IMG/VR virus record: IMGVR_UViG_3300012351_000011
Location: 1-54,989 of that record
Length of the DNA stretch: 54,989 nt
Strand: one strand, 5' to 3'
Origin: a virus
Lineage: Duplodnaviria; Caudoviricetes
In this document: positions 1,575 to 52,998 of the stretch, one piece after another
Layout of the letters: each line of letters starts with the position of its first letter
Numbering within the stretch: the first letter of the stretch is position 1
Program-made: the position numbers and the translations under genes
The notes under the pieces: model-generated
Database searches by the model: none
Told to the model about the DNA's origin: nothing
What the model saw: only the letters and a program-made list of their open reading frames with translations

Positions 1575-2276
1575 ATGAATTTACCACCCATGACGCAAAA
1601 CCAGAAGCTTATTCTGTCGTTTCTTGCCTCGACAGCAGGAGCTGCAGCGTCAGCAGGAATAGCGGCCATCGTGCAAGCGTATACTCAACAGGGGCTTGAT
1701 ATCCCTGTACTTATCAATGTGGGGCTCCTGGCCTTCTTTGCGTTCTTTGGGCCGGCTCTCAAGAATTATGTGCCAGGTCATATTCAGCAGATCTTACAGG
1801 CATCTGTTGATACAGCGGCCATGTATCGCAACGCTGCGCAACAATCACAACAGGCTCATGCCGCGCTGACGCAAACCGTTCAGACACTCTCCAAAGTGGC
1901 ACAACAACAGGCTGCATCACCTGCTCAACCCTTGCAAGGGAGTGCGCAACCTGCTGCTAGCGGTTCTGTTCAGTTGAATTTTCCTACTAACACCAGTGCG
2001 GCCAATAATTGGATGTTGGACAAACCTGCTCCACAACCCTTGCAAGGGACAGTACCACAGGGACAGGGGCAATACACGTTCACGCCGCCAGTACGTCCCA
2101 CGCCAGTACAGCCTCAACCTATCACGTTTCCAGCGGTACGACCGCCAATGGAGAGTATCAATATGGCACAAACACCAGTTGATGTTTCGCAGCAGGACAC
2201 ACAGTATCAAAGCGCGGCATTGCCGCCAGATCTTCACTTTGGCGATTCGGCACTTATTCCACAAGTGAATAAATAA
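1575..2276 (+). CDS. Holin-like membrane protein with long Q/P-rich tail
   Basis: AAGGAG RBS before MNLPP; two hydrophobic helices, then a low-complexity tail; near the endolysin. Confidence 0.55.
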   Translation: MNLPPMTQNQKLILSFLASTAGAAASAGIAAIVQAYTQQGLDIPVLINVGLLAFFAFFGPALKNYVPGHIQQILQASVDTAAMYRNAAQQSQQAHAALTQTVQTLSKVAQQQAASPAQPLQGSAQPAASGSVQLNFPTNTSAANNWMLDKPAPQPLQGTVPQGQGQYTFTPPVRPTPVQPQPITFPAVRPPMESINMAQTPVDVSQQDTQYQSAALPPDLHFGDSALIPQVNK

Positions 2277-2278
2277 AG

Positions 2279-2953: not shown

Positions 2954-2981
2954 CCCATTCTCCTTAACCCCTTGCAGGGGG

Positions 2982-3376: not shown

Positions 3377-4326
3377 TATATCATCGCCTCTTTTGCCAGT
3401 TCTCGCTCAAGTGGATATTTGAGCTTCCTTAATGCATCCTTCTCAATTTGCCGGATGCGTTCACGGCTCACCTTGAAATGCGCTCCACATTCAAGCAAGG
3501 TTGAAACGTCCTGTGGATCATCGGTTTTTGCTATACCAAACCTCATACGCAAGACAGCACGCTCACGCTTGCTCAGTACAGACATGGCACGCTCTATTTG
3601 CTGTTGTAGAGCGTGCTGATCGTCATCCTGGCCAGGCTGGGATATGTTCTCATCTATCAAGATATCACCAAGCGTGTTGTTTTCGTCAGTGCCAATCTCG
3701 CTATAGAGCGGCATATCCAAACTAGCGGTGTCTTCGCTGAGCAAGAGCATTTCATGTACTTCTGTTTCTGTCATGTTCACGAAGCTAGCAAGTTCTGATA
3801 GACTAGGCTCTCTTTCAAGTTTCGCTTCCAAGATGCCACGTTGCTTTTTGAGATGCTTGATATTGTCGAAGTAGTAAGACGGGACGTAGATCAGTCGTTG
3901 CTCATGTAGCGAGCGACTAATTGCCTGTCGTATCCACCATGTAGCGTATGTGCTGAACTTGTACCCCTTGCAAGGGTCGAACTTCTCAGCAGCACGCATC
4001 AGGCCGATATTTCCCTCTTGTATCAAGTCTAAGAAGTCAGCACCCGTACGCTTTGCGTAGCCACGCGCAAGAGCCACGACTAAGCGCAGGTTGGCTTCGA
4101 TCAAGCGTTGTTTGGCGGATTGGTCACCGGCTGCAATACCCCTTGCAAGGGTGACTTCTTGCTCAGCGGTCAAGAGAGGGTGCAAGTTGGTTTCGTTTAA
4201 GTATTGGTTTAAGCTGTCTTCTTTGAAGTCGTCTCCGAATTCTTTGATGTCGCGCGGTGTGATAGTTCGTCTTGGCATGGCTGATATGTCCTCTCTTCTG
4301 GCTAGATGAACTGGTTGATGTTCCAT
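3376..4326 (-). CDS. RNA polymerase sigma70-family factor (RpoD-like, no region 1.1)
   Basis: Region 1.2 [15 protein letters not shown]; region 2 [45 protein letters not shown]; region 4 [17 protein letters not shown]. Confidence 0.95.
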
Positions 4327-5473: not shown

Positions 5474-5516
5474 CGTTGAATGCTCACTTTCTCCCCTTGC
5501 AAGGGGTGGCTATCGG

Positions 5517-6170: not shown

Positions 6171-6952
6171 CACTTCACCTCCATATCTCGAAAACATAAA
6201 TCTCTCATGGGACATTTTTTGGCGCGGCTATCATCCGGGGACTGGCATACTCTTGCAGGGAAAGGTTTGCCGTTCCTTGCAAGGGAAACATGACCTTTGA
6301 CGGCGTAGGCTCTATCGGTGTAGGGCTTTGAATACTTCGGGTCATGCTCTACTACCCAGAGTTTGAATTCACGACTGTCATTTTTGTTCACAATGAGGAT
6401 GATAGCGCGCTTTAATTCAAGTAAATGCATGTACAGCTGAGCTTGAAAAAACGCCTTGTTGACCGTTGTATTGGCTGTCATGGCCGTTACAAGGCTTGCA
6501 TCAGCTATCGGGTTATAGCTTTCCTGCTTCAACCCTTTAATCTCAACCACGTAGTGCATACCAAAGAAATTGAGAATGGCATCCGGGGAAAAGTACACGT
6601 TGCGCGTCTCATCGTAGTGAGTCAAGTCGAGCTCAGGTTGACCATTGTTCATGACCACATTCAAGTGATTTTTGAAGATCAACTGAAGCATCCGGTGAAT
6701 TTCCCAGCCATGCAAGAAGATGCTGTACTGTTTCCACTGCCAGTATTTCAGGTCCTCGGGTTGCACTTCATCGGGTTGCAATTGAGCCAACACGTAGCGC
6801 CGTGTACACCACTCGCTTTCATCAGATAATAAATTTGATGCGTGTGGGGGACCTGTGCGGAGTGGTTGTGAACCACCCCACGACAGGTAAGCGTCCTGGA
6901 TATCGAGCTTGATAAGCTCTTCAATGGTACGCAAACTAGAACTCGTGGTCAT
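6170..6952 (-). CDS. Cas4-like PD-(D/E)XK exonuclease (recombination)
   Basis: WCTR, SPDA, VEIK and QAQLYM motifs, with C-terminal C..CPMRDLC Fe-S ligands; adjacent to SSB. Confidence 0.8.
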   Translation of the reverse strand: MTTSSSLRTIEELIKLDIQDAYLSWGGSQPLRTGPPHASNLLSDESEWCTRRYVLAQLQPDEVQPEDLKYWQWKQYSIFLHGWEIHRMLQLIFKNHLNVVMNNGQPELDLTHYDETRNVYFSPDAILNFFGMHYVVEIKGLKQESYNPIADASLVTAMTANTTVNKAFFQAQLYMHLLELKRAIILIVNKNDSREFKLWVVEHDPKYSKPYTDRAYAVKGHVSLARNGKPFPARVCQSPDDSRAKKCPMRDLCFRDMEVK

Positions 6953-7724: not shown

Positions 7725-7851
7725 TGTCTTCAAGTTCCTTCTTTCTGTGTGTCAATTCACAACTTTTCAAAATGTGAGCGGTGAACAGGGGTTGTGTACA
7801 TGGAAGCGATGGAGGTCCTACCCTGTCTCCTGTTCACCTTGCTCTTGTCGT

Positions 7852-7926
7852 ACTATACCATAGTCATTTTATCTTGTCAATACTTTGCAATACTCTTGCA
7901 AACTTATTGCTACAATGCTATACTAA
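7852..7926. promoter_or_regulatory. Divergent sigma70-type promoters with tandem TTGCAA boxes (cassette A)
   Basis: Leftward TTGACA-N17-TATAGT; rightward TTGCAA-N17-TATACT with extended TG. Confidence 0.75.
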
Positions 7927-7954
7927 GGTCACAATACGAAAGGAGGGAAGAAAC

Positions 7955-8242
7955 GTGAACGATCTACCGCCATTTCGCCGCTACGAAACCTTGCAGGGGG
8001 TTGAGTATGAAATGTTGAGCAGTTCAGGAAAGAGCTACTACACCGTGCCAATGGTCGGTTTAGTGGCCGCTGGTTGTGAATGCAGGTACAGCAAGTTCAA
8101 TCCAACCTGCAAACATCAGCAGGAAGCTGAGCGACAAGAGGCACTTTACCAGGGAGAACAGCAACCAGTAGAGCCTGCTAGCGGCATTGGCGAAAGAGGC
8201 TCTTTGAATTATGGGGATCGAGGATTTAGCTTGCTCAGGTAA
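7955..8242 (+). CDS. SWIM zinc-finger protein
   Basis: SSSGKSYYTV..CEC-x8-CKH; AAGGAGG RBS, GTG start. Confidence 0.75.
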   Translation: MNDLPPFRRYETLQGVEYEMLSSSGKSYYTVPMVGLVAAGCECRYSKFNPTCKHQQEAERQEALYQGEQQPVEPASGIGERGSLNYGDRGFSLLR

Positions 8243-9834: not shown

Positions 9835-10476
9835 ATGAGTTGTTATATCCAAAAATTAGAGCAAGTCAAGGATGGTTGGCATATCCGCTTTGGCGGGTCC
9901 AGCGACCACTTCTGGACAATGCTCTCCAATTTCAAGGCCGAGCAAAGACGCAGTAGCCAGGTGAATTGTTCTTATAATCCCAAGTTCTGTAATGGTCGTG
10001 GTGGATGGTTTTGCACTGACCATATCCTTGTTAAATATGGATTTGACTTTGAGAATTATATTGATATGCGTCAAAAAGCCGAGACGGCCTATACAGAAAA
10101 CGGCAAAGCTGAACAAGCCAAACATGAGAAAGAGGCCGAGGAAAAGCGCAAACGAGAGTGGCAAGAAGCGGCGGATCGGATGCGTGCGTGGGAGAAGCGC
10201 ACAGGAGAATGGGAACAAAGACAGCGTGAAGACCGCTCGTATTCATATCGACAGCCAACGCGGTCACCAGGGACGGCGCTGACATTGACTGAAGCAAAGG
10301 TTGAGTTGGGTTTGTCGTCATTGGCGCAACTCACCGAGAAAGAGGTCAAGAAAGCGTTCAGGCTTAAAGCCATGACTGTCCATCCTGACCATGGCGGTAC
10401 ACACGAGGGTATGGTGAGACTGAATCAGGCATACCAATTGGTGATGTTCCATGCGGTGAAAGTTGGTGTGAGATGA
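9835..10476 (+). CDS. C-terminal J-domain (DnaJ-like) protein
   Basis: VKKAFRLKAMTVHPDHGG..MVRLNQAY, with the HPD motif. Confidence 0.85.
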   Translation: MSCYIQKLEQVKDGWHIRFGGSSDHFWTMLSNFKAEQRRSSQVNCSYNPKFCNGRGGWFCTDHILVKYGFDFENYIDMRQKAETAYTENGKAEQAKHEKEAEEKRKREWQEAADRMRAWEKRTGEWEQRQREDRSYSYRQPTRSPGTALTLTEAKVELGLSSLAQLTEKEVKKAFRLKAMTVHPDHGGTHEGMVRLNQAYQLVMFHAVKVGVR

Positions 10477-12224
10477 CCACTTTCACCGAAGAAAAGACAT
10501 CCTCCACCAAAGAACAGCAGAATGGACACAATACGGCTTTTCAGCAAGACGCCAATGCTCGTGCGTATATACTGGCGCTAAAAGCTCATGAGAAGCCTGT
10601 TAGTACGCCAGATGTTGGCAAGTGGGCGCAGTGTATCGGACATCTTGTGAACGTCTACAATGAGGCTCCTGACACCATAGAATACGTCATTGTCGCCTTT
10701 ATTGGATCGGGGAAATACCCAGGGCTCAAAGAACTGCTTGCGAATGACCCCTTGCAGGGGAATATTCCGATAGAGGATGAAGACTACAGCGTGCCTCCAC
10801 TGCCTGATGATATCAAAGCCAATGAGGCGCGCGCTTCAGAGGCGAGTCCTACGCTGGATGCCATGATAAAGCTTCTGCAGTACTGGTGTACCAGGTCCTA
10901 CGATGGCTATCATGAGGCGGTAGCTTTGTTTGTGCTGGATGTGATAGCCGCTAGACGGCCTTTTCTTCCCTGGCGTAGTGGCATATGGACAAGCTTGTAT
11001 TTGATGCTTGTTGCCGATAGCACGACGCACGCTAAGACAGAAGCCGCAAGTTATGGCCGTAGGATTATTGAGGATTGCGGTCTTGGCTATTTGCTTTCCC
11101 CGGATGAAATAACACCGCAAAAGCTCATGAATAACATGACCGGGGAGAATGTTCCCAGAAACTACAACACAAAGGACCCTGACGGCAAAGAATATATTCG
11201 TCTAAAGCTTGCTTTTGCTGGCCAACGTGGCTGGTTATACGATGAGTTTGGAAACAAATTGCAGGAGATCATCACGGCCAAAGGCCATAATGCATACTTC
11301 TATGCGCTCTTGAAACAGTTGTATGACAACAAACAGACTTATGAATATGACACACTCACCAGGGACAATGAGCATATCAACATGCCGTATCTGTCCATTA
11401 TCGGAACGGCTACACCGGCCTGTCTGAAACCAATAGCATCCAAACAAAGCGCCGTGTGGACTGATGGTATGTTTGCCAGGATTGCGTTTATTGTGCCTCC
11501 CAAAGATGAATTAAAGCTCCAGTCAGCACCGCAAGAGCAATTCTTTGTGCCAAATGAGATACGAGACAAATTGGTCAAATGGCATCAAGAACTTGGCTTC
11601 CCCGATTGCGAGATTGTTGATACAGCAGAGCAAGAAGAGTTGATGGCAGAGGCGCATGGTGAAGATAAGAAAAAGAAAAAAGCGAACAGACAACCCTACG
11701 AGGTCAACCGTGGGGACTTGCCACAGCAGATCGTGACATGGACGCAGGATGTCTATAAGGCGCATGAAAGCTACTACGAGGCTCTTGCTACCCTGGCAAG
11801 GGATAGCGGGCTAGACGAACGCTTTAGAGCCACCTATGGCCGTTTACCAGATATGGCACTCAAGATAGCTATGTTGCTCTCCAGCCTGGAAAATAATGGA
11901 GACATTGACATGCGCCACTGGGCTAGAGGTCAGCAAATTACCGAGCACTGGCGCGCGAACTTTCATGAGTTGATTGCGCAGCTCTCGAATGATGAAGCGC
12001 GCGGCTTTGGTGAGATCCAGGACAAAATTCTTGAGGTCATCACCCAGAAACTGAAGGGCAAGAAAGCCAACTCATACACCATATCCCAACACGGTAGCAC
12101 GCTTCTCCGCAAGATCGGCTCTATCAAAGTGCGTGAAGTTCTGGATGAACTGGTCGCAGCGGGGAAACTGGAAATGGCTGGAAAAGGTAAAAGCGCACTC
12201 TATGGAATTCCTGGCAAGGGGTAA
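10473..12224 (+). CDS. DUF3987/YfjI-like replication helicase-related protein with C-terminal winged helix
   Basis: Degenerate Walker A ADSTTHAKT, Walker B LYDEF, LSIIGTATP, DGMFARIAF. Confidence 0.75.
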   Translation: MTTFTEEKTSSTKEQQNGHNTAFQQDANARAYILALKAHEKPVSTPDVGKWAQCIGHLVNVYNEAPDTIEYVIVAFIGSGKYPGLKELLANDPLQGNIPIEDEDYSVPPLPDDIKANEARASEASPTLDAMIKLLQYWCTRSYDGYHEAVALFVLDVIAARRPFLPWRSGIWTSLYLMLVADSTTHAKTEAASYGRRIIEDCGLGYLLSPDEITPQKLMNNMTGENVPRNYNTKDPDGKEYIRLKLAFAGQRGWLYDEFGNKLQEIITAKGHNAYFYALLKQLYDNKQTYEYDTLTRDNEHINMPYLSIIGTATPACLKPIASKQSAVWTDGMFARIAFIVPPKDELKLQSAPQEQFFVPNEIRDKLVKWHQELGFPDCEIVDTAEQEELMAEAHGEDKKKKKANRQPYEVNRGDLPQQIVTWTQDVYKAHESYYEALATLARDSGLDERFRATYGRLPDMALKIAMLLSSLENNGDIDMRHWARGQQITEHWRANFHELIAQLSNDEARGFGEIQDKILEVITQKLKGKKANSYTISQHGSTLLRKIGSIKVREVLDELVAAGKLEMAGKGKSALYGIPGKG

Positions 12225-13029: not shown

Positions 13030-13241
13030 ACCATGCAAGGGTTTTGCATAGTAAGCAAAACAGAACCAGTAAAACACATAGAATTATGTCAACAATGCAA
13101 AATAAGCAACTATGCAATTATGCAAACATATAAAAGTATTAGGTATCTATTTGCATAGATATTACAGAAGAGAAAAACAGGAAAGTACCTTTTGCATAGT
13201 TGCATATTTGCAGAGAAACACAGTACCCCTTGCAAGGGGTA
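13030..13241. other. Putative replication origin with TTGCATA iterons
   Basis: AT-rich non-coding gap with six TTGCATA/TATGCAA copies, ending in an 18-bp perfect palindrome. Confidence 0.5.
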
Positions 13242-13900: not shown

Positions 13901-14578
13901 ATGGATGATACTATACTCTCAAGTACCTCAAATAACAACCCCTTGAAACGTTGCTCGGCATGTGAAAAAGAGCTTCCAGCCACAACAGAGTTTTTTGGCA
14001 GTTCAAAAAAAGGCAAATATGGTTTACGCAGTTGGTGTAAAGCCTGTTGCCGCAAGAAAAGAAAAGCTTACCTCAGTTGCCCAGAAGTTCAAAAGCATAA
14101 CCATGATGTAAGGAAAACTTATCTTCAAAGACCTGATGCAAAAGAACGCGCTCGACTTGCAGAGCAAAAACGTCGTCAACGTCCAGAGGTAAGAGCCTAC
14201 CAGCAAAGTTATGAAAAAACAAAACGAACGCATTCTGGATACAGAGAAAAAGAACGAATACGATCCCGAACACGCTACTATCAACCCAATGGTAAAGAAA
14301 AAGCACTTGCGAAAAACCATACTCGCCGCGCTCGTAAGCTGAATAATGGAGGAACGCACACAGCACAAGATGTTCAGACTCAATATGAGCGGCAACGTGG
14401 TAAATGCTACTATTGCAAAACAAAGGTTGGTAAGAAATACCATGTCGATCACATCATACCCCTTGCAAGGGGAGGTTCTAACGGACCTGAGAATATTGTG
14501 ATAGCCTGCTCTACATGCAATCTTTCTAAGTGCGATAGACTTCCTCGCGAATGGCCTCAATGTGGGAGATTATTATGA
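13901..14578 (+). CDS. HNH endonuclease
   Basis: CYYC..HVDHIIPLARGGSN..ENIVIACSTCNLSK; N-terminal KRCSAC/CKAC zinc finger; TATAAT box upstream. Confidence 0.92.
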   Translation: MDDTILSSTSNNNPLKRCSACEKELPATTEFFGSSKKGKYGLRSWCKACCRKKRKAYLSCPEVQKHNHDVRKTYLQRPDAKERARLAEQKRRQRPEVRAYQQSYEKTKRTHSGYREKERIRSRTRYYQPNGKEKALAKNHTRRARKLNNGGTHTAQDVQTQYERQRGKCYYCKTKVGKKYHVDHIIPLARGGSNGPENIVIACSTCNLSKCDRLPREWPQCGRLL

Positions 14579-15942
14579 TAGATTTACACGACCTTATTGA
14601 ACAAAAGTCACCTGTTCGTCTTACTAAGGTTGCCAGTTCTCATAATGGAGAATGGGCCGGGAATTGCCCCTGGTGTTCAGGTACAGATCGCTTTAGGGTG
14701 TGGCCGTTCTCAACACGCAGTCATTATTGGTGCAGGGGCTGTAATAAAACTGGGGATGCAATTCAGTTCCTACGTGATTATTGTGATATGTCTTTTATCT
14801 CGGCTTGTCAGGAGCTGGGGATAGAACCAGGGGATACAATTTCCCACGAGGCACCGATGTTCTTTGACGAGGATGCTCCATGCGCCAAATGGCAAGAGAT
14901 GGCTAACCTGGTTGTCAAGTCAGCAGAGAATTACTTGTGGAGCAACAAGGCTCCGCACGCGCTAGAATACCTCATGAAGCGAGGCCTGAATGAAGAGACG
15001 ATACGCCGCGCTAGACTGGGTTATGTGCCACTGATGCCTGATGGCACGTGGTATCAACGCTCATTTGCTGACTGGGGACTGACTGATGAGATGCTATCCG
15101 AAAAGCAAAAAACCAAGGGAGGTGTGAAGATACCTCCAGGTATCCTCATTCCTTGGTACGCAGATCAACAAATATGGAAACTAGCTATCAAACGCTTTGA
15201 GGCTAAAGACGGTGAAATGTCGTACGGTCAAATCGTGGGGTCTAAGGACGCATTGTACAACGCAGACTCCCTTGCAAGGGGTAAACCATCGTTGTTAGTC
15301 GAGGGAGAGTTTGACGTGCTCTCAGCGGAGCAGGAGGCGCGCGACCTGGTTGCAACCATCGGCACCGGATCAACCGCCAAGGCGCGCATACCGCTGTGGA
15401 TCGCGCGCATGGCTAGCACTGCAAGTTTTGTATTGGTGAGTTTTGATAATGATGAGAATAGCGCAGGGGATAATGCAGCGGCTTTCTGGCTAGAAACACT
15501 CCCCAAATCTATGAGGTGGCTGCCATATGCTCATGATATTAACGACATGCTCAAAGAGGGCAAGTCTATCCGGCAATGGGTACAACTGGGATTGAGCCTG
15601 GCAATGGAAGAAAAGCCAACAGAGCAACCCTTGCAAGGGATACAGCAGGAAGAGCCGTTTATATGCTCTAAATGTGGCCTGGATCTCAATAACCCTGACA
15701 TTGATGCTCATATCGACCCACAAGGCGTATCTTATTGTGAAGCGTGCTGGAAGAAACAACAAACACCTGTTGCAGAACCACCTGCTGAACCAGCTACACC
15801 ATTCTATCCATGCTCTAAATGTGGCAAAGATACTATGAGGCATGAACCAGATGGGCTATGTTCTCAGTGCCACTGGGAAACGCTCACACAGTATTATCCA
15901 CCACAAACGCTACAAAATACATGGACTTCTTCCAGAAAATAA
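14575..15942 (+). CDS. DNA primase (CHC2-type Zn finger plus TOPRIM)
   Basis: CPWC..DRF..YWCRGC..GDAI; LVEGEFD; FDND; DIND. Confidence 0.9.
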   Translation: MIDLHDLIEQKSPVRLTKVASSHNGEWAGNCPWCSGTDRFRVWPFSTRSHYWCRGCNKTGDAIQFLRDYCDMSFISACQELGIEPGDTISHEAPMFFDEDAPCAKWQEMANLVVKSAENYLWSNKAPHALEYLMKRGLNEETIRRARLGYVPLMPDGTWYQRSFADWGLTDEMLSEKQKTKGGVKIPPGILIPWYADQQIWKLAIKRFEAKDGEMSYGQIVGSKDALYNADSLARGKPSLLVEGEFDVLSAEQEARDLVATIGTGSTAKARIPLWIARMASTASFVLVSFDNDENSAGDNAAAFWLETLPKSMRWLPYAHDINDMLKEGKSIRQWVQLGLSLAMEEKPTEQPLQGIQQEEPFICSKCGLDLNNPDIDAHIDPQGVSYCEACWKKQQTPVAEPPAEPATPFYPCSKCGKDTMRHEPDGLCSQCHWETLTQYYPPQTLQNTWTSSRK

Positions 15943-18221: not shown

Positions 18222-18255
18222 GTTAGTGTAGAAATTATTTTTGAGAGGAGCGCAA

Positions 18256-19054: not shown

Positions 19055-19128
19055 AATAAAATACACAACAAACCGTCCCCCTGCTCGGCAACAACTCATT
19101 GAGTGAGCCTTGCAAGGGGCTTTTGTCT

Positions 19129-34584: not shown

Positions 34585-34619
34585 CCCCTTGCAAGGGGAA
34601 ATTGATAGGATATTAGAAC

Positions 34620-43111: not shown

Positions 43112-43558
43112 ATGGCACAGCCGTTCAACGAAGTCCAGACTGCCATTGTTACTGCTTTGCGTGCTGATGTTCCTGTGCGAACATCTCTACCAGGCTCACA
43201 ATCGCCAAATTGGAACATTCTTGACCATGTGCCAGCAACGCAAATCTATCCTTATATCTACGTCGGAGACATTCAAGGGGCAATAGGCTCTACCCTTGCA
43301 ATGGGGCCAAATGGCAAAGCTACAGATTTATTGGTGACACTGCACATTTTCAGCCAATATAACGGGTGGAAAGAAGTGCAGGGAATAGTAAGCGCTATCG
43401 ACAATGTGCTCAATGAGAAAAATTTAGCTTTAGCTAATGGCTTTACCTGGTTCTTTTGCTTATTTGATAATTTTATCCCAGTCCCTGAAGACGATCAGGG
43501 AATAAACGATATCACACGGCATGGAGCCTTGCGTTACCGGATAAAAACCCAAGGCTAA
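43112..43558 (+). CDS. Tail terminator (DUF3168-like)
   Basis: DHVP..YPYIYVG, TLHIFS..GWKEV, RHGALRY. Confidence 0.8.
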   Translation: MAQPFNEVQTAIVTALRADVPVRTSLPGSQSPNWNILDHVPATQIYPYIYVGDIQGAIGSTLAMGPNGKATDLLVTLHIFSQYNGWKEVQGIVSAIDNVLNEKNLALANGFTWFFCLFDNFIPVPEDDQGINDITRHGALRYRIKTQG

Positions 43559-43620
43559 CCCCTTGCAAGGGTTACATTTGTACACACGACTTATCAACAG
43601 GTTGACAGGAGAACGAATCA

Positions 43621-45266: not shown

Positions 45267-47896
45267 GCACAACGCTCGGAGATGCCAACGTCAAATTTGG
45301 CGCGGACCTATCTGGATTTACAGCCGGTATTGCCACTGCAAAGGGGCAGATGACCGGCTTTTCTGACAGTGTGTCTAGCGCCATGCGAGATGTTGCCTCT
45401 GCTCAGCAAAAGGCCAGTGAAGCTGCCAAACAACTGGAATTAGCGCAATCGAACGCGGCTCTTGCATTCAAAAAAGCCTACGATATGGCTATATCTGGCA
45501 AAGCTTCAGATGAACAACTTGCAGTAGCGCAGGCACAGGCCGCTGTATCCGCTGAAAAAGTGTCAGCCGCTCAGTTGAACGTTGTGTCTGCTGAAGAGAA
45601 AGCAGCAAACGCGGCGCGACAGCTTGCCGAAAGTCAACAGCAAGAAGCACAATCCGGGGATAGAGCCGCGCAATCGGAAAATGAGCTTGCATCTGCCAGT
45701 AGTCACGCTTCTGAGTCCTCTAGCGGTTTCGGCTTTTCTCTGGGAGGTCTTGTTGGGAAGGTCATGGACTTTGGAAGCAAGATCGGCATGACCATCTTTG
45801 GCGTGCAAAGTTTCATTCAGACCGTAGGGGGCATAGCAAACGCTTTCATTGCGCCAAATGCCTCAATGGAGCAAACAAAAACAGCGTTTACAAGCCTGCT
45901 TGGCGGCTCCCAAGCTGCACAAGCTGAACTGGATAAGCTAGTCAAATTTGCCGCTGACACGCCCTTCGAGTTTCCTGCTCTAGCAGAAGCTGACCAGAAA
46001 TTAATAGCTTTCCAATTCACCACGAAACAGACACAACCTCTACTCACAGCCATAGGTGATGCTCTCTCAGGACTGGGCAAGAATACCCCTGCTTATTTAT
46101 CGCAAGTGGTTGATGTGTTCGGACAAATGCACGCAGCGGGCAAGATCCAGACACAAGACCTCATGCAACTCACGAGCGTTGGTATCAATGGCTTCCAGAT
46201 GCTTGCAGACGGTATGCATCTGACTGTACCTCAAGTCAAAGATCTCGTCACAAAGGGCCTCATTCCTGCTGACAAGGGCATCGAATTGCTACGTCAAGGC
46301 ATGGAGAAGACGTTCGGCGGTGGTATGCAAAAGCAAAGCGAGACGTTCAACGGGTTGATGTCTACGCTATCAGATAATATCGGGGGCGCATGGCGGGCGT
46401 TCACGGGTCCGCTATTCGACAAAGCGAAAGAGGGCCTGACTGAACTGGGTAAGCTGGTGTCGTCGCCTGATTTCCAGAAATTTGCGAAGACACTGGGTGA
46501 GGATGTAGGCCGGGCGCTAGATGACATCGGACAATTTGTTGAGCATGATGTAGCACCTGCACTGTCAAAACTTGGAGAGCTATTTCATACCGCACAACAG
46601 GACTGGCAAGATTTCACGTCGCATATTGACTTCAAAGATATCAAAAGCTCGCTTGGGGTATTCAGCAAAGCATTTCAGGATGACATTCTCACGCCGCTTG
46701 GCAAGATTTCTGACGATATATTTAAGCCATTGGCTGATAGCTTTAAAAATGTTGATTTCAGCCAACTGGGAAAGCTCTTCAGTCAGGATGTGATTAGCGG
46801 GCTCAACCAGGGAAGCAAGCTTCTGGGAGATGTCGGGAAGTATCTGAAGGAGGATATAGAGCCTGCTGTCAAGAGTGTTGTGCCAAAATTTGAGGATCTA
46901 GCTCATACATTTGGACACGACGTTGCTCCTGCCCTAGCTGATATCTCGGAAAAAGGTGGCAAGGTCGTCAAGGACATATTTGAGCGTCTAGCACCTGTCC
47001 TGAAGGATCTAGGTCCGGATACGATCAAGTTTGCCGGGGCATTGGCGAAGGATTTATCTGATGCTCTGAAGATCGTAACGCCAGAAATCAAGGATGCTAC
47101 CCTTGCAGTTCTGGATTTTGCTGATAAAATCTCAAATCGCGTGTCACCGGCAATCAATGAGATGTGGGCCGGGCTGAATGACCCATCCATGCAGCCAATA
47201 TGGGCGGGTATATGGGCATTCTTTTCTGATACAGTGAAGACTACATGGGACACCATAGACGGCATAGTCAGAATTGGCTGGTCGCTACTGTCTGGGCAAA
47301 TTCTCCTTGGGTTGGATATCCTCAGTGGAAACTGGGGGCAAGCCTGGCAAGATTTGAAGGATATGCTCTCTGGCGTCTGGGATGGCATTCGTGTTGCAAC
47401 CAAAGACGGCATGGGGAAGGTCATAGACGCCATTGAAGGGCAATATGACCGTACTTTTAACGCGATGACCGGGCCATTTGGGGACGCCTACAGGCAAATC
47501 CGCGCCTGGTTGGAGGATATCCGCAGACTTTGGGACCAATCAAAGCCGACCGCTCTGGATGAGTCTACACCTGGACCAAAAGGTTCAAGTGGTGACTTTG
47601 GCGGCGGCGGCGGCTCAGTCAAAGGCTTTGCCAGTGGCGGCTCAAACATCCCCGCTGGCCGCTACAAGGTTGGTGAAGGTGGCTGGGAATTTATGGATGT
47701 GCCTGGCGGCTCTAACATCTACAATCACGCGCAAAGTATGAACATGGCTAATACACCCTTGCAAGGGAATAATCATCCTGTCGTAGTCGAGAACCATGTA
47801 CATATTTATCTCGACGGTCAAGAGATGACCGACATCATCATGTCTAGCGCTATGACTCGTATCCTTGGGCATGGGCCGGTCAGGAGCACGATATGA
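45263..47896 (+). CDS. Tape measure protein
   Basis: FAADTPFEF..GKIQTQDLMQL..TFNGLMSTLSD tape-measure domain, W-spaced repeats, FASGG..VGEGG.E. Confidence 0.93.
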   Translation: MSTTLGDANVKFGADLSGFTAGIATAKGQMTGFSDSVSSAMRDVASAQQKASEAAKQLELAQSNAALAFKKAYDMAISGKASDEQLAVAQAQAAVSAEKVSAAQLNVVSAEEKAANAARQLAESQQQEAQSGDRAAQSENELASASSHASESSSGFGFSLGGLVGKVMDFGSKIGMTIFGVQSFIQTVGGIANAFIAPNASMEQTKTAFTSLLGGSQAAQAELDKLVKFAADTPFEFPALAEADQKLIAFQFTTKQTQPLLTAIGDALSGLGKNTPAYLSQVVDVFGQMHAAGKIQTQDLMQLTSVGINGFQMLADGMHLTVPQVKDLVTKGLIPADKGIELLRQGMEKTFGGGMQKQSETFNGLMSTLSDNIGGAWRAFTGPLFDKAKEGLTELGKLVSSPDFQKFAKTLGEDVGRALDDIGQFVEHDVAPALSKLGELFHTAQQDWQDFTSHIDFKDIKSSLGVFSKAFQDDILTPLGKISDDIFKPLADSFKNVDFSQLGKLFSQDVISGLNQGSKLLGDVGKYLKEDIEPAVKSVVPKFEDLAHTFGHDVAPALADISEKGGKVVKDIFERLAPVLKDLGPDTIKFAGALAKDLSDALKIVTPEIKDATLAVLDFADKISNRVSPAINEMWAGLNDPSMQPIWAGIWAFFSDTVKTTWDTIDGIVRIGWSLLSGQILLGLDILSGNWGQAWQDLKDMLSGVWDGIRVATKDGMGKVIDAIEGQYDRTFNAMTGPFGDAYRQIRAWLEDIRRLWDQSKPTALDESTPGPKGSSGDFGGGGGSVKGFASGGSNIPAGRYKVGEGGWEFMDVPGGSNIYNHAQSMNMANTPLQGNNHPVVVENHVHIYLDGQEMTDIIMSSAMTRILGHGPVRSTI

Positions 47897-50800
47897 CAAC
47901 GGCCTTAGCGACTTATGGTAACCAAACGCCCTCATCTACCCTTGCAATGGCAGATCAGGCGGTCAACACCAATACAGGCACAACCACAAGCGCACCTACA
48001 ACGCTCATCGGCACATCGACAGGCTATGGTGAGATACCGGCCAATGGAACAGCAGCGGCGTGGCCTGCTCTGGGTAGCCTCCCGGCTCAAAGCAGCAAGG
48101 GCTGGTTGTACGACACCACAAGTCTTGAATTTCAGCAATTTATAGCGGGCAATTGGCAGTGGCTAGACAGGGTAAAAATCAGCGTAGGAACGGCTACCGC
48201 TGATTTGATCGTCCGGTTCTCGAAATATAATGCCGGTGTTTATACCACTTTAGGCGTGATCACGCTTTCTGGACAATCGCTAAACACAACCATAACTCAA
48301 TTTACCAGTGCTCTTACCGCTCTTGGTGTCTTTAATTTCCCGAATGCGGGCGATAAGCTCTACATCGATAGATTTGCGAACATCACGACAAATGGTTCAG
48401 GTTCAGGCGCGGCCACGCTCAGTTTACAAAGTTGTAATAATGCGGGCCTGGGTCGCGCCAATAATGCAGAGTTGCGCAGTCCTGGCTATCAGCCTATGCC
48501 GATCTTGGCAACATCTCCAACTTCTCTATCATTTAGCGCTACAGCAGGGGGCGCTAGTCCAGCGAGTCAGAATAGCACGCTCTCAGAGACGGCTGGCACT
48601 GGAAGCGCCTGGACTTCCTCTATCAGCTATGGTAGTGGTTCAGGATGGTTAGGCATATCTCCTACATCTGACACATTAACCGGGTCGGGAAGTGAACCGA
48701 TATCTTTCACCTGCACTACCGGGGCGCTTACAGCAGGGACGTACACGGCTACAGTGACCTTCACAGCCTCTAATGGTGGTAAAACAGCCACGGTCAATGT
48801 CACGTTTATAGTGGCACCTGCACCAACGGGCCTGACTGTGCTCGTCGCTGGCAATCCGATTAATCTGGCGTATAGCTCATGGAAACTCACGAAACAAATT
48901 GATCAGCAAGACCGTTGCGTATTGACTGTGATTGATACGACTGGGACGGCCAATTTCACCAAATTCCAGACCGTTCAGGTGAACGACTCGATCCAGGGTA
49001 CACTCTGGACTGGATATATCAATAATCCGGTCTCGACGAAGCTTCCCGGCAATGCTCACCGCCTATGGGCGCTTGACTGCACTGATCAAATCTTGCTTGC
49101 GCACAATCGCACAAGCAATAAGATTTACGCTAATCAGTATGCTGGCACGATCTTTGCAGATCAGATACAGCGGTATCTTGCATCAGAAGGCATCACCGGG
49201 GCATTTGCCTTGCGTTGGGATGAGCTACAAACAGACTTCGCAGCGGGGACACTCACCAATGTCATAGCCGCTGCCAACTTCCATGATGCGAACAGTGGAG
49301 ATGGAGATCTCGAGCTTTCCCTTGCAGGGGCTGATGTCTCTTACAGCGACGGCGGCATTATCTCAAGCACAACGAAATGCCTGAAGTTGACAGGTACCGC
49401 TGTATCAGGTGTCACAAACCCGTATGTCTATCGCAAAATCTGGACAGGCTCTCAACTCATCGCTACAGGTGACTCACTGGAATATGATGTGTTTATTAGT
49501 AGCACATCGCCGCAAATCATAGCCGGGGTTGATTTCGTTTGCACAGACGGAACAACATTTCGAGATAGTCCAGACGCCGGTACAGATGCGCAGGGTATAC
49601 TGCCACACCCAAAGAATGACTTGGCTGGTCTGGCAAATGATACATGGTATCATCGCGGCTTTGGTGTCGCAGGGGCCCTCATCGGGAAGACAATCAGCTA
49701 CGTGACTGTTGTACTTGAGGGTGATAACCCTGGCACGTACACGGCGTTTTTTAGGAATATTTATTGGAAGAACGGCGCGACGACTAAGCAGATTTTCTCG
49801 GATGACACCTCTTATGTCATCTCTCAGGTTTCAGGCGGTCCTACTGTCAATTTGACAGTAGCCGTGAATGGCTACAGCAATGTGTCTTTAATCATCGTGC
49901 AGGCGTATGACAATGTGACCAATGCAGTAACCACGCACTCTATAGACGCCGCTAAAATTGTGAAAGGCTCGGTTATCAGTTGGGTCACCGGCAATGCTGG
50001 AGGTACATCAGGTGTGGCTACAGGCGCTGTAGCTACTCTGGAGACATCTATTGATAATGGTGTCACATGGCAACTGGCGACCAGTGGAAGCGCTATCCCT
50101 AATCTCTTGCCAGGGATGGCTATAGCCGGTCGCTCTCTCCAGTATCGTCGCAATGTGAAACTTGGAAATGACCCAACGGTCGCGAATTATTTTGTCTCGA
50201 CAAAACTTGTCGTCTATTCTTCGTACAACGCGACAAAGAGCGATGTAGTAAGCACTACGAGCACACAAGCGAACTTTAATGCTGGCACTTTGACCAATAC
50301 AAAGTCACTTGTGGCCGGTGGATTAACGCTCAATGGCTTTTCTAGAAACTGGAATGACACAGACTATAGCAGTCAAACGGTCTTTGGCGGCGGTGGTGGA
50401 CCATTTCAAGCTATTCTCAACAAGCAGATTTACCTCAATGTTCTAAGCGGGAATGACGTGCGTTCACGCTTGGATTTTGTCGGCACATGGCAAGATTTCA
50501 CCGCTGAAGTCGATGTGCAAGTACAACCAAATATGGTCATTGGCCTGTGCTACAGGACTACAGGCTGGCAGAATAACAATGACACGTATGCTTACTCAGC
50601 GGACATCAACACAACCTCTATCAATCTTGGGAGAGGGACAAATTTAGCGACAGGCGCGGGCGCGCGTACCTCCATAGCAGGAGTCGCGGCGGCATTTGTG
50701 GCGGGTTCCTGGCATCGCTTGAAAGTGGTTGTTTCTGGATCCAATCACAAAGTCTACGTCGATGATGTGCTCTATCTCAACGCGACTGATGCCACGTTCC

Positions 50801-52998
50801 TCGCCGCGGGTAACATCGGCCTCAGATATTTCAACAATACTGGCAGTGTGCAGAGCGGCTACTTTGACAACTTTGGCGTTGTGGCTAATCTCACTGGCAC
50901 ATGGCAAAGTCCAGCGATTTCTATTGCAGCGGCTACGACGTATGGGAACTCGCTTGTCGAGTGGGACACGCTTCAAACGCCTAATGCAACGTTTATCACG
51001 GCGCAGGCATCCATTAATGGCGGCTCAACCTGGCAAGACGTGACGAACGGCGGCGCTATCCCAAATCTCACACCTGGCCAATCCCTCGCAGGGGTGAATG
51101 TGCTCATCAAGTTCACACTCACTGCTAACAATGCGCCTGTACAGCCAACATTAGGGGCGGTGACGATATGGGTACTTGGACAATTCAACGCATCAGGGAC
51201 ACGTATATCGCCTGTGCTCTCCCTTGCAGGGGTTGGTAGGGCCGGAAGTGCATTGGTGAATTGGAACGCTTTACAGCCGACAAATACGAGCGTGCTTGTC
51301 GATACGTCGATAGATAATCAGGTTTCATGGCAGAATGTTGCGAGTCCAGGGAACGCTATTGCTGGTATCAACCTGCAACCTGCTCCAACGGTGGATACGT
51401 TCGCAACGAATACAAGCGCGAACTACACCTCGACTTTCGGGCCAAGCGGAAATGCTGCAACATGGACCTATGACACGGCTAATAGCAGGCTTACAGCGAC
51501 AGGAGGCAACCGTTCTGTTTTTCTTTACAACAGTCTGACAGCAACGGATGTAGACCTGTTGTGTGATATGGATCAGAGCGACGCGGGCGGTCTGGTGTGG
51601 CGCTGGATTGATGCAAACAATTATTATGAGATCAGTATTCAGGATGCATCGAATGGCAATCCAAACCAATTGACGCTTTTCAAGACGCTTGCAGGCGTGC
51701 GTGCACAACTTGCGCAGACGCTTTCGATCAGCTTCCCACATAACACACCTCATCGTTTCAGAGTGACCATGCTGGGGGGTGTGATCACCTGCTATATGGA
51801 TAATGTTCAGGTGTTGACTTTCACTGATGGCTCTCCCCTTGCAGGGGGTCAGTGTGGCTTGCGAGATGGCATCAATGCCGGTTTTGCGACTGCACGCTTC
51901 TATCAACTCAGAATACAGCCACAAGGGGACGATGTAAGCGCGAAGACGCTGTACACGCGTCAACGGTTGAACTCGACAGACCCAACCGCTACACCTGCAC
52001 TGCTTGACATTCAAGCGTTTGTGTCAGGGCCTTCCATTGGAGTGGGTGCGCTTGTTCCAAGTCGAGATTATACGCTCACCTATGTAAGCGACAACTTGCA
52101 GGATTTGAACACGCAATCAAACTATTGGTGGAACATCAAGCAGACCAAAGAAGCCGAGTTCAGGCCACGTAGCGCAACCCCTGCACCGTGGCCTTTGGCG
52201 CAAGCCAATCAGAGCGTACAAACAGCCGGTCAGAAGATCGGTGATGTGCTCTACGAAAATTTGAGCGTAAGAAATAGCGCAGACCTGTACAGAAACAGGC
52301 AAATCTTGAAGGGTGTGCAGGCAACTCAGGTATTCAGCAAAAACTTCATCGGGGATGGCTCATCAACATCCTGGACATTAGACTTCGCGGTAGCACCGGG
52401 AACCATACCGACGTTCAAGTTGAACAATCAAGCTGTTTCGATTGGCGTGCAGGGTGATAGTGGCAAGCAATTTTACTACCAACCAGGTGGAACGGGAATT
52501 ACTGCTGATGGCTCTGTAACAACGCTGGTAGGGACTGACACTCTGAGCGTGAGTTACACTGGGATATTCACGACATCGGTTACCAGGAACAATACAGGCG
52601 GGTTCCCTGGCACTCTCTCGCAGGCACAACTCTATGTCATGATGGGCGGCTCTGGCATTGTCGAGAACGTTCTCGATGTGACTGCGCTCAATCTCAATGT
52701 GCCTGCTGCACAAGCGTATGGTGATCAGCTCTTGCAGCTCTACGGCGTCATGGGGCAAATCTTGACCTTCAAGACGCTACGACAAGGACTAGCACCGGGG
52801 CAACAATTGCCGGTCTTTATTCCAGAGAAGAACATCAACAATGTGCAATTCCTGGTATCGCAAGTCGAGATCACAGCGACGTATGGCCTGGATGTGAGTA
52901 ACAATCCCATCGCGCTGTACTGGTATGCGGTTACGGCGCTCACCGGGCCAAACTTGGGCAATTGGTTGAGGCTCTTTGCTAATGGATTAAGTAAATAG
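47893..52998 (+). CDS. Giant tail tip / receptor-binding protein
   Basis: 1701 aa; BACON-like Ig domain, hub-like segment, two LamG/DUF1080-like domains, three SIDNG.TWQ-type repeats. Confidence 0.8.
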   Translation: MTTALATYGNQTPSSTLAMADQAVNTNTGTTTSAPTTLIGTSTGYGEIPANGTAAAWPALGSLPAQSSKGWLYDTTSLEFQQFIAGNWQWLDRVKISVGTATADLIVRFSKYNAGVYTTLGVITLSGQSLNTTITQFTSALTALGVFNFPNAGDKLYIDRFANITTNGSGSGAATLSLQSCNNAGLGRANNAELRSPGYQPMPILATSPTSLSFSATAGGASPASQNSTLSETAGTGSAWTSSISYGSGSGWLGISPTSDTLTGSGSEPISFTCTTGALTAGTYTATVTFTASNGGKTATVNVTFIVAPAPTGLTVLVAGNPINLAYSSWKLTKQIDQQDRCVLTVIDTTGTANFTKFQTVQVNDSIQGTLWTGYINNPVSTKLPGNAHRLWALDCTDQILLAHNRTSNKIYANQYAGTIFADQIQRYLASEGITGAFALRWDELQTDFAAGTLTNVIAAANFHDANSGDGDLELSLAGADVSYSDGGIISSTTKCLKLTGTAVSGVTNPYVYRKIWTGSQLIATGDSLEYDVFISSTSPQIIAGVDFVCTDGTTFRDSPDAGTDAQGILPHPKNDLAGLANDTWYHRGFGVAGALIGKTISYVTVVLEGDNPGTYTAFFRNIYWKNGATTKQIFSDDTSYVISQVSGGPTVNLTVAVNGYSNVSLIIVQAYDNVTNAVTTHSIDAAKIVKGSVISWVTGNAGGTSGVATGAVATLETSIDNGVTWQLATSGSAIPNLLPGMAIAGRSLQYRRNVKLGNDPTVANYFVSTKLVVYSSYNATKSDVVSTTSTQANFNAGTLTNTKSLVAGGLTLNGFSRNWNDTDYSSQTVFGGGGGPFQAILNKQIYLNVLSGNDVRSRLDFVGTWQDFTAEVDVQVQPNMVIGLCYRTTGWQNNNDTYAYSADINTTSINLGRGTNLATGAGARTSIAGVAAAFVAGSWHRLKVVVSGSNHKVYVDDVLYLNATDATFLAAGNIGLRYFNNTGSVQSGYFDNFGVVANLTGTWQSPAISIAAATTYGNSLVEWDTLQTPNATFITAQASINGGSTWQDVTNGGAIPNLTPGQSLAGVNVLIKFTLTANNAPVQPTLGAVTIWVLGQFNASGTRISPVLSLAGVGRAGSALVNWNALQPTNTSVLVDTSIDNQVSWQNVASPGNAIAGINLQPAPTVDTFATNTSANYTSTFGPSGNAATWTYDTANSRLTATGGNRSVFLYNSLTATDVDLLCDMDQSDAGGLVWRWIDANNYYEISIQDASNGNPNQLTLFKTLAGVRAQLAQTLSISFPHNTPHRFRVTMLGGVITCYMDNVQVLTFTDGSPLAGGQCGLRDGINAGFATARFYQLRIQPQGDDVSAKTLYTRQRLNSTDPTATPALLDIQAFVSGPSIGVGALVPSRDYTLTYVSDNLQDLNTQSNYWWNIKQTKEAEFRPRSATPAPWPLAQANQSVQTAGQKIGDVLYENLSVRNSADLYRNRQILKGVQATQVFSKNFIGDGSSTSWTLDFAVAPGTIPTFKLNNQAVSIGVQGDSGKQFYYQPGGTGITADGSVTTLVGTDTLSVSYTGIFTTSVTRNNTGGFPGTLSQAQLYVMMGGSGIVENVLDVTALNLNVPAAQAYGDQLLQLYGVMGQILTFKTLRQGLAPGQQLPVFIPEKNINNVQFLVSQVEITATYGLDVSNNPIALYWYAVTALTGPNLGNWLRLFANGLSK

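Follow-up and report, generated by a model that had tools for sequence, protein, structure and literature searches.

Repeat content of the window

The stretch of DNA analysed here, hereafter the window, is the complete IMG/VR record IMGVR_UViG_3300012351_000011 (54,989 bases, linear; CheckV completeness 77%), which Pfam and PHROGs identify as a contig of a temperate siphovirus. Its structural genes include those for a large terminase, a major head protein, tail proteins, a tape measure, and a tail protein of 1701 amino acids (aa), and its DNA-handling genes encode a DnaG-like primase, a DUF3987 primase/helicase-like protein, a ResIII/SNF2 helicase, a Cas4-like exonuclease, RusA, and an HNH protein. 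The regulators comprise a full-length sigma-70 factor, two helix-turn-helix (HTH) proteins of the Cro/CI type, and two HTH_17 proteins (16090-16383 and 24249-24479). No relatives were found among cultured phages: the protein in the portal position has no match, and the integrase stays below 28% identity. The subject of this study is a 12-base palindrome, CCCTTGCAAGGG, which recurs throughout this soil-phage contig.

The window holds 18 exact copies of the palindrome, starting exactly where the preliminary description of this DNA had placed them (1929 to 47756; Table 1), against an expectation of 0.00 from 100 dinucleotide shuffles. Allowing up to one mismatch raises the number of matches to 35, compared with 0.12 expected and a largest shuffle value of 2; the 17 one-mismatch copies among them again coincide with those listed earlier. 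On average, an exact or one-mismatch copy is met about every 1.6 kb. The enrichment survives a codon-preserving shuffle, which had been proposed as a check. Specifically, when synonymous codons were permuted within each of the 65 open reading frames (ORFs) of at least 80 codons (46,182 nucleotides [nt]; 300 shuffles), the 12 exact copies in these ORFs compared with a shuffle mean of 0.23 (maximum 2), and the 11 one-mismatch copies with a mean of 1.41 (maximum 5). These counts confirm that the repeat excess is real and strongly non-random.

The imperfect copies delimit the site further. In a pool of 506 kb of DNA from the elements described below, containing 117 exact, 111 one-mismatch, and 80 two-mismatch copies, 58 of the 111 single mismatches fall at position 1 of the half-site and 42 at position 4 (T>C in 32 of these). 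Positions 2, 3, 5, and 6 account for just 3, 3, 4, and 1 (11 of the 111 together). Since mismatches are nearly confined to positions 1 and 4, the constrained core can be written as nCCYTGCARGGn, and the window has 33 sites of this pattern against 0.31 expected.

As first described, the copies within genes use every reading frame, on genes of both strands, and are read as PLQG, LAR, and PCKG in frames 0, 1, and 2, respectively. The copy reported in conserved region 2 of the sigma factor is indeed there, as DPCKGY within Pfam Sigma70_r2, and the recurring extended form, CCCTTGCAAGGGGTAGA, is present three times (13227, 17718, and 25517). The label of holin given to ORF 1473-2276, which contains two of the PLQG copies, finds no Pfam or PHROG match behind it.

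Carriers of the palindrome

A scan of viral sequences for the 14-mer CCCCTTGCAAGGGG returned at least 118 stretches. Counted over whole records, the 12-mer occurs 17 times in G001 (59 kb, complete), 8 times in G413, 6 times in G004, 5 times in G002, 3 times each in G003 and G005 (4.2 kb), and twice in G415. These motif-bearing records share only 0.3-5 kb at 65-71% nucleotide identity, and their proteins are 25-61% identical. A scan with an integrase alignment, which is blind to the motif, gave five loci, including G411 (64.6 kb, complete), with 7 exact and 17 one-mismatch copies, and the 10-kb fragment G412, with no exact and 3 one-mismatch copies. Core sites number 16-35 in five other elements and 28 in G856.

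At some orthologous positions, the site is kept while its reading changes. The primase site at 15628 is shared by the window (G000) and G001 as PLQG, and in G004 it is kept with a 1-nt shift, giving PLARG. In the gene for the 1701-aa tail protein, two of the three CCCTTGCAGGGG copies (49319, 51221, and 51836) align with exact sites in the orthologues of G001 and G002, which read PLQG where the window reads P/SLAG. Such conservation was seen in about 5 of 22 pair comparisons, most other sites not being kept. Together with the synonymous shuffle, the sites kept in a shifted frame bear out the earlier proposal that the constraint acts on DNA rather than protein. Selection of the motif at the DNA level, in and between genes, is shown.

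The hosts of these elements can be narrowed down through the integrase. Its homologues at 49-55% identity are named for Ktedonobacteraceae bacterium, Thermosporothrix sp. COM3, Dictyobacter kobayashii, and Ktedonobacteria bacterium brp13. A close integrase is also present in the Chloroflexota genome G607, whose class comprises 169 genomes, and another member of that class, G816, encodes a protein 100% identical to one named for D. kobayashii. Because of these names and this identical protein, the class was taken as Ktedonobacteria, and we infer the same host class for the elements, in agreement with the preliminary guess. The sigma factor allows no host assignment, being about 48% identical to RpoD of many phyla.

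We counted the palindrome in 81 of these 169 genomes and found it in 22, the other 59 being without a copy. The total of 34 copies compares with 31 for a reversed-pattern control (the table was added by hand; it includes one copy each in G738 and G748, and no conclusion rests on either). Nine of the 34 belong to G445, seven of them on one 8.3-kb contig and one on a second, both with phage-related genes. In five further genomes that have a related integrase, there are 55 copies in 44.9 Mb, against 2 for the control, and 51 of the 55 lie in seven islands, with one small pair and two singles making up the rest. By genome, G817 has 19 copies (17 within 44 kb beside the integrase gene, int, and a pair elsewhere), G816 has 13 (3 beside int and 10 within 19 kb elsewhere), G848 has 10 (3 around int, 6 on one contig, and a single), G793 has 9 (8 within 11 kb at int and a single), and G840 has 4 (all within 50 kb from int on).

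For three islands, the limits are marked by direct repeats of tRNA 3' segments, which represent the attachment (att) sites: K817a (46 nt, 51.9 kb apart), K793 (33 + 22 nt, 12.8 kb), and K816b (49 nt, 21 kb). Within the DNA analysed, every core site falls between the repeats (35/35, 9/9, and 12/12, respectively), and the host flanks included for the three islands (6-13 kb each) have none. The repeats came from a direct-repeat search, aragorn having found no tRNA gene at the scanned island ends. Since every core site is inside the att bounds and none is in host flank, the motif belongs to the elements and not to the host; the rest of the 6-14 Mb Ktedonobacteria chromosomes is at chance level. 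Counting in related phages and candidate hosts had been proposed as the way to tell a host palindrome from a phage-specific site, and the outcome, dense in the elements and at chance level in the chromosomes, speaks for a property of phages and other mobile elements. The lineage concerned comprises temperate siphoviruses, such as the window, and small islands with integrase and DUF3987 genes. Altogether, we consider it very probable that CCCTTGCAAGGG is a cis-element of one lineage of tRNA-integrating Ktedonobacteria elements, with about one site per 1.5-3 kb, selected at the DNA level and at chance frequency in the chromosomes.

One of the islands, K793 (G793:C2 ~1,085,000-1,098,000; L261 7072-19878), is a 12.8-kb tRNA-integrated element that encodes an integrase, DUF3987, and an FtsK/SpoIIIE-like protein and has 9 sites. 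It resembles the integrative conjugative elements of actinomycetes, and its host is a mycelial member of the Chloroflexota.

A host-wide palindrome of the highly iterated palindrome (HIP) type, or a mutational or repair bias common to phage and host, would likewise put most copies within genes and in all frames, as HIP1 does, and the phage is temperate. We scanned one genome per species (185,579 species) for two 12-mer copies 5-35 nt apart, where about 0.07 matches are expected by chance and a genome at the phage density would give about a dozen pairs. The 41 loci found are mostly arrays of Roseicyclus and other Rhodobacterales with a fixed spacing of 22 or ~45 nt, and the remainder are tandem repeats in a metagenome-assembled genome (MAG) of the Prevotellaceae and isolated pairs from a number of further taxa. 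Five of these genomes were counted in full and have 3-30 copies per 3.4-4.1 Mb, at least 40-fold below the phage. A pair scan of 241 million metagenome records added 45 loci of like kinds, none of them a chromosome with scattered copies, and five phage-related fragments (L184, L225, L199, L207, and L220); 401 Cyanobacteriota genomes have at most 11 copies each. Since the Ktedonobacteria chromosomes are at the level of the control outside the elements, and related phages have 0-3 sites, the host-wide alternative is refuted, and we leave it next to no probability.

The unrelated occurrences fall into several kinds. In the Rhodobacterales loci (L130-L168 and L195-L228), the 12-mer is the core of the arrays spaced 22 or ~45 nt, with flanks of 3-4 nt that vary but are mutually complementary (ACG/CGT, AGA/TCT, AGG/CCT, and AAT/ATT); this looks like a family of hairpins of the repetitive extragenic palindromic (REP) type, or of binding sites, unrelated to the phage. 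Tandem repeats with a period of 24, 35, 47, or 30 nt contain the 12-mer at L143, L156, L166, and L169 (the Prevotellaceae MAG) and at L202, L198, L206, and L194 (metagenomes). In two cyanobacterial MAGs, G006 and G007 (L171-L183), the few 12-mers are parts of longer hairpins, such as CTTCCCCCCTTGCAAGGGGGGACT, which both MAGs have in identical form, within DNA that has about 2 HIP1 per kb and no phage relatives. A cyanobacterial host of the HIP1 type was rejected for the window, which has one GCGATCGC and one CGATCG (12 expected), the MAG matches being these unrelated long hairpins. The spacer that is conserved between the paired sites of the metagenome relatives L199, L207, and L220 is missing from the window.

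Anatomy and placement of the sites

The centre of the site, TGCA, is itself self-complementary. Together with the fixed contact positions and the tolerant positions, this centre is a better fit to two-fold recognition of duplex DNA than to a hairpin. It is decidedly unlikely, in our estimate, that the motif acts in RNA, whether as a small hairpin (CCCU-UGCA-AGGG) for an RNA-binding protein or through an effect on mRNA stability or translation. Intergenic copies do often lie 10-50 nt upstream of start codons, some copies reach 7-bp stems (the one at 13227 with -11 kcal/mol, z -3.6), and of the asymmetric variants in ORFs, 21 leave a U.G wobble in the sense RNA, compared with 8 that put a C.A mismatch there (p=0.024). 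Pure recognition of double-stranded DNA does not predict this strand bias, which could, however, stem from coding preferences, for example, for Leu-Ala-Gly in tail genes. Hairpin covariation was rejected: the palindrome is kept in just 5 of the 80 two-mismatch copies, so that compensatory stems are not enriched, the ±1 flanks are complementary in 6 of the 18 window copies (read by eye), and on its own the hairpin has little stability (-4.4 kcal/mol, z -0.6 to -1.4). In addition, a self-complementary loop has no rationale in a hairpin, and Rfam gave no match.

Relative to genes, the sites are placed much as regulatory elements would be. When 130 exact copies were pooled from 19 elements, 52 were found outside ORFs, against 17.4 expected, which is an approximately threefold enrichment between genes, and 51 were within 30 nt of an ORF boundary, against 21.6 expected. 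The gaps between sites are more even than random placement would make them, with a coefficient of variation of 0.55-0.85 in six of six elements compared with ~0.95 (P = 0.26, 0.29, 0.32, 0.02, 0.013, and 0.006 for the single elements; ~6e-4 when combined by hand with Fisher's method, the elements being related). Such coverage fits the preliminary picture of a signal marking the whole genome. In small islands (K793, K816b, and K445c145), 3-4 sites are grouped just downstream of the DUF3987 gene.

A second concentration of sites is found at the integrase gene. About 70 nt upstream of its start, the window has a stretch like the 3' half of a tRNA, with the T-arm GGTTCGATTCC at 27526-27536 and the ending ...GTCGGGAACA. 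Because this stretch resembles, by eye, the 46-nt att repeat of K817a, it is the probable core of the phage attachment site (attP). The candidate core does not contain the motif; it is ~70 nt from the site at 27625, and further sites surround it (26768, 27017, 27276, and 27915). Seven of 12 elements have a site within the 0-41 nt preceding the start of the integrase ORF, and the distance from site to att core is 37-70 nt. In three more (K817a, G856, and G412), a site falls within the called integrase ORF; in K817a and G856, it is near the 5' end of that ORF, which may be over-extended. Sites also cluster in the non-coding DNA beside int, with five in the window and four in G001.

This arrangement raises the question of whether the sites serve integration, excision, or other site-specific recombination by this integrase clade, those in attP being arm-type sites or sites for accessory factors and the dispersed copies secondary ones. 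A search for genes that co-occur with the motif, proposed in the preliminary description, singled out this clade (at least 49% identity) as the sole perfectly co-distributed gene: all 12 site-bearing elements have it, and all four motif-less relatives lack it. Each independent integrase-based search ended in site-bearing DNA, most elements have a site adjacent to int, the window sites at 27276 and 27625 flank the probable attP core, and some island ends have tandem integrase genes. The co-distribution may nevertheless reflect common descent alone. The att cores are tRNA 3' segments that lack the motif, Pfam shows no arm-binding domain in the window integrase, a spacerless palindrome of 10-12 bp is no core site for a tyrosine recombinase, and recombination among some 30 dispersed sites would leave the genome scrambled. 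A recombination role is, as such, rather unlikely. The related idea of hot spots at mosaic junctions was rejected on the similarity breakpoints between G413 and G856, of which 2 of 32 are within 50 nt of a site, with 1.56 expected.

Table 1. Palindrome sites, attachment site candidate, and selected genes of the window
Feature	Position	Strand	Context
Exact site	1929..1940		ORF 1473-2276 (+), frame 0, PLQG
Exact site	2037..2048		ORF 1473-2276 (+), frame 0, PLQG
Exact site	3965..3976		Sigma-70 gene 3376-4326 (-), frame 2, DPCKGY, within region 2
Exact site	4140..4151		Sigma-70 gene 3376-4326 (-), frame 1, TLARGI
Exact site	5494..5505		Intergenic, 20 nt upstream of start of ORF 5102-5473 (-)
Exact site	13227..13238		Effectively intergenic; middle of perfect 18-nt palindrome TACCCCTTGCAAGGGGTA; ATG 13261 is 22 nt downstream
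Exact site	14460..14471		HNH gene 13889-14578, frame 1, PLARGG
Exact site	15269..15280		DnaG-like primase gene 14551-15942, frame 1
Exact site	15628..15639		DnaG-like primase gene 14551-15942, frame 0, PLQG
Exact site	17718..17729		SWIM-like Cys/His protein gene 17387-18115 (-), frame 2, TPCKGA
Exact site	23120..23131		ResIII/SNF2 helicase gene 22545-24224 (-), frame 1; not kept in orthologues
Exact site	25517..25528		Intergenic, 5 nt past stop of ORF 24855-25511; followed by GTAGAGAAGGAGG
Exact site	27625..27636		Between attP core and integrase start; overlaps first possible integrase start codon
Exact site	34586..34597		Intergenic, 22 nt upstream of ORF 34620-36239 (539-aa gene after terminase)
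Exact site	36559..36570		In ORF 36252-36575, ends 5 nt ahead of stop
Exact site	37096..37107		ORF 36794-37162 (-), frame 1
Exact site	43560..43571		Intergenic, 1 nt past tail-completion gene, 49 nt ahead of tail-tube gene
Exact site	47756..47767		Tape-measure gene, frame 0, PLQG
Near site CCCTTGCAGGGG	2969..2980		Fits CCYTGCARGG
Near site TCCTTGCAAGGG	6274..6285		Cas4-like exonuclease gene; fits core
Core-only site CCTTGCAGGG	7989..7998
One-mismatch copy CCCTTGCAAAGG	8243..8254		Gene junction; outside core pattern
Near site CCCTTGCAGGGG	10749..10760		DUF3987 gene; fits core
One-mismatch copy CCCTGGCAAGGG	11791..11802		DUF3987 gene; outside core pattern
Near site GCCTTGCAAGGG	19107..19118		Intergenic, convergent ORFs either side; fits core
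One-mismatch copy CCCTTGCAAGAG	20098..20109		Outside core pattern
Core-only site	26768..26777		First of 5 sites grouped around attP and integrase start
Near site CCCCTGCAAGGG	27017..27028		Intergenic, attP-side cluster
Near site CCCTTGCAAGGT	27276..27287		ORF 27123-27467 (-); ~220 nt from attP core
Core-only site	27915..27924		Within integrase gene
Near site CCCTTGCAAGGT	31803..31814		Intergenic, 17 nt upstream of ORF 31832-32161
Near site CCCTTGCAAGGC	37165..37176		Divergent intergenic region
Near site TCCTTGCAAGGG	38170..38181
One-mismatch copy CCCTTGCAATGG	43293..43304		Outside core pattern
One-mismatch copy CCCTTGCAATGG	47939..47950		Outside core pattern
Near site CCCTTGCAGGGG	49319..49330		1701-aa tail gene, SLAG
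Near site CCCTTGCAGGGG	51221..51232		1701-aa tail gene, SLAG
Near site CCCTTGCAGGGG	51836..51847		1701-aa tail gene, PLAG
Probable attP core	27497..27556 (limits approximate)	-	tRNA 3'-half-like stretch
Tyrosine integrase	27628..28695	+	Pfam; SAM-like core-binding and catalytic domains
DUF3987 primase/helicase-like gene	10473..12224	+
PAPS-reductase-like gene	12257-13024	+	PHROG 424, E 2.7e-34; between DUF3987 and HNH genes
Sigma-70 factor	3376-4326	-	Regions 1.2, 2, 3, 4
Cro/CI-type HTH (HTH_26), type A	18241..18492	+	Rejected as binder
Cro/CI-type HTH (HTH_26/HTH_3), type B	31374..31577	-	Rejected as binder
SWIM-like Cys/His protein, site-bearing gene	17387-18115	-	No Pfam or PHROG match
Second SWIM-like Cys/His (CxC...CxH) protein	7781..8242	+	Unproven candidate binder

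Candidate readers and relation to known systems

Because the motif is confined to phages and islands and is not a feature of the host chromosomes, it looks like a recognition site for a protein of the elements. The reading we favour, to which we give somewhat less than an even chance, is that the copies are dispersed duplex sites for a symmetric, element-encoded protein, operator-like and resembling the stoperators or the Cluster O repeats of mycobacteriophages. This protein would be dimeric and sequence-specific, and many evenly spread copies, along with a fixed copy between the attP core and the start of int, would permit control of the whole element at once. The likeliest mode would be repression or blocking of transcription, int included, in the lysogen, with the copies acting as dispersed operators or "stoperators". 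The small islands would use the same signal as the phages.

Several observations weigh against such a protein or such operators. First, no binder was found among the families tested in the window and the elements compared. The HTH_26 family, the sole obviously dimeric HTH family common to the large phages, was rejected, since near-identical HTH regions occur in motif-less phages; as a result, the earlier suggestion of a phage HTH protein as reader does not hold for the Cro/CI-type proteins. In viral scans with two HTH_26 alignments (A3, 17 loci; A4, 11 loci), only 9 of the 28 loci have at least three sites. Among phages with near-identical HTH regions, G852 has one site in 75.6 kb (its HTH_26, at L271, is 72% identical, with the same recognition-helix region), G853 and the complete G855 have none, and G854 has three, compared with 28 in their relative G856. 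The HTH_17 proteins and the SWIM-like family are also present in motif-less relatives, and island K793, with its nine sites, has no recognisable HTH. Second, ORFs contain 60% of the exact copies, a larger share than classical operators show (ORFs throughout are naive longest-ORF calls, not gene predictions), and the sites near HTH genes show no consistent autoregulatory layout. Third, in the close pair G413 and G856 (96.7% identity), sites are not significantly better kept than the background (17/19 vs 0.80). The strand bias of the asymmetric variants described above counts on the same side.

The other kind of reader suggested initially, a ParB-like protein, was not found by Pfam or PHROG in the window, in the non-structural ORFs of G001, or in the small islands. 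The SWIM-like family stays a weak candidate. Its members are small proteins with an invariant CxC...CxH, several of them with a C-terminal RG.LN..GFSLLR, and homologues are encoded by G001, G004, G411, G856, G855, K793, K816a, K816b, K817a, and K445c102; it was rejected as an exclusive marker because, besides most motif-rich elements, it is in the motif-less G855. PHROG gave no match for the SWIM-like proteins, for families G001|54487 and G001|57232, or for ORFs 5102-5473 and 27123-27467.

To find other genes that track the motif, we compared the families of eight large motif-rich elements with those of four motif-less relatives. Absent from all four relatives are an uncharacterised family of 130-170 aa (7/8 motif-rich elements), RusA and the SNF2 helicase (6/8 each), and the Cas4-like exonuclease and a further uncharacterised family (5/8 each), and the primase is in 7/8 compared with 1/4. 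These associations would suit a "self" signal for the replication or recombination machinery, either a DUF3987 loading site or origin-type iteron, or a Chi-like mark that protects element DNA against a nuclease-helicase of the phage (RusA, the SNF2 helicase, and the Cas4-like exonuclease). DUF3987 is present in all complete or dense elements, the groups of sites just downstream of its gene in small islands point the same way, and a palindrome at an even spacing of 1.5-3 kb would act in both directions. We nonetheless regard this explanation as unlikely, about on a par with a role in recombination. Known Chi sites are short and asymmetric. The small islands have the densest sites yet lack RusA, the SNF2 helicase, the Cas4-like exonuclease, the primase, and the uncharacterised motif-rich-only families. 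What the window has in common with the small islands is limited to the integrase, DUF3987, and a SWIM-like CxC...CxH protein, the first two being the only families common to the window and all small dense islands. DUF3987 itself is missing in G004, G413, G002, and K840, is present in the motif-less G852, and has no stretch that stands out as conserved, and the gene associations are possibly phylogenetic.

Modification of the motif, by methylation or otherwise, as a mark on element DNA is very unlikely, somewhat more so than an action in RNA. It is attractive through the likeness to HIP1 of cyanobacteria, which is linked to a methyltransferase, and there is a C5-cytosine methyltransferase in G001 and a PAPS-reductase-like gene in the window. 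However, the modification system envisaged in the preliminary description is not apparent, as Pfam finds no methyltransferase in the window (77% complete), the G001 enzyme has no partner among the families shared with other elements, and methyltransferases rarely recognise sequences as long as 10-12 bp.

HIP1 (GCGATCGC) is, like the present motif, a short GC-rich palindrome found in genes in all frames and far above chance, but it is spread over the whole host chromosome (the MAG stretches have about 2 copies per kb), whereas the present motif is confined to mobile elements. Pfam finds no cognate methyltransferase in the window (77% complete). DNA uptake sequences and Chi are over-represented in the host chromosome, which is not the case here. 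REP-like hairpins and those of miniature inverted-repeat transposable elements (MITEs) are intergenic with complementary stems, as the Roseicyclus arrays indeed are; the window sites differ, with 60% in ORFs and no flank covariation. The KorB operators of plasmid RK2, the C1 operators of phage P1, and the conserved inverted repeats of phiC31 each form a dozen or more dispersed copies under one global regulator (ParB-family KorB, C1, and the c repressor, respectively) and are mostly at promoters. Arrays of the parS/ParB or KorB kind find no ParB-family protein in the window. Stoperators occur at ~24-36 per 50 kb, and the 33 core sites in 55 kb are of similar density and likewise dispersed genome-wide.

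Although no analogue with this sequence was known to the preliminary description, the phenomenon has precedents. The stoperators of Cluster A mycobacteriophages are many dispersed repressor sites in a temperate phage genome that stop transcription elongation; they lack symmetry, follow the direction of transcription, and are recognised by a repressor in monomeric form (PMC9283540), whereas the window site is a perfect palindrome with no repressor assigned, HTH_26 not tracking the motif. The closest described case is the 17-bp palindrome TGTTCGGNNNCCGAACA of Cluster O mycobacteriophages, with 34 copies, of which 14 are intergenic, 10 lie near the 5' ends of ORFs, and 10 are inside ORFs (PMC4351075), its function and binder being unknown (PMC4351075; PMC6439249). 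Both cases present a near-invariant palindrome in more than 30 copies across a siphovirus genome, between ORFs, at their 5' ends, and inside them. The present motif differs in sequence, in being a 10-12-bp palindrome without spacer, and in having more copies in ORFs. It is also common to divergent phages (25-60% aa identity) and to small non-phage islands, belongs to another host phylum, and was shown to be absent, beyond chance, from the host chromosome. Cluster O phages are not kin of the window, for which no cultured relative was found. A full-text search for the CCCTTGCAAGGG string found only an unrelated Streptococcus paper, and among the papers listed on Ktedonobacteria prophages, no title or abstract points to such a motif.

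The motif thus offers a precise, testable cis-signal in Ktedonobacteria phages and islands, 10-12 bp long with about 30 copies per genome and at chance level in the host. It predates the divergence of the elements (25-60% protein identity) and overrides protein coding at some positions; therefore, its reader is likely to be central to the biology of the elements. Its interest lies mainly in being sharp, ancient, common to elements of several kinds, and open to tests in isolates that are available: since the two isolate genomes behind G816 and G817 have motif-rich prophages, binding, methylation, and transcription are directly accessible. As a practical marker, the motif allows such prophages to be located and delimited in Ktedonobacteria genomes by counting. 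A more speculative idea, to which we assign a low probability, is that a whole guild of mobile elements in Ktedonobacteria has this motif in common as a "self" tag, the guild comprising phages, primase-helicase islands, and the island with the FtsK/SpoIIIE-like gene. If so, machinery travelling with one integrase clade would read it, for example, as a phage-encoded Chi-like or loading signal or through a common silencer; related elements would then tell one another's DNA from that of the host and recognise, co-regulate, or spare it, and the motif would be the cis-code of a mobilome, beyond a single phage.

A few further observations concern the window and its relatives. The sigma-70 factor shows ~48% identity to the RpoD proteins of many Terrabacteria, and none of the other elements in the comparison was seen to encode it. 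In the motif-less relatives L287 and L293, other 10-mers recur, AAGTGTCGAA six times in 13 kb and AAAGTGCAGA seven times in 16 kb, and related phages may carry different iterated words. Finally, the window strongly avoids several 6-bp palindromes, with TTCGAA, CGATCG, GACGTC, GGATCC, GGGCCC, and CCGCGG occurring once each against 10-15 expected, and similar lists of avoided palindromes were obtained for G001, G002, and G004, which suggests heavy restriction pressure.

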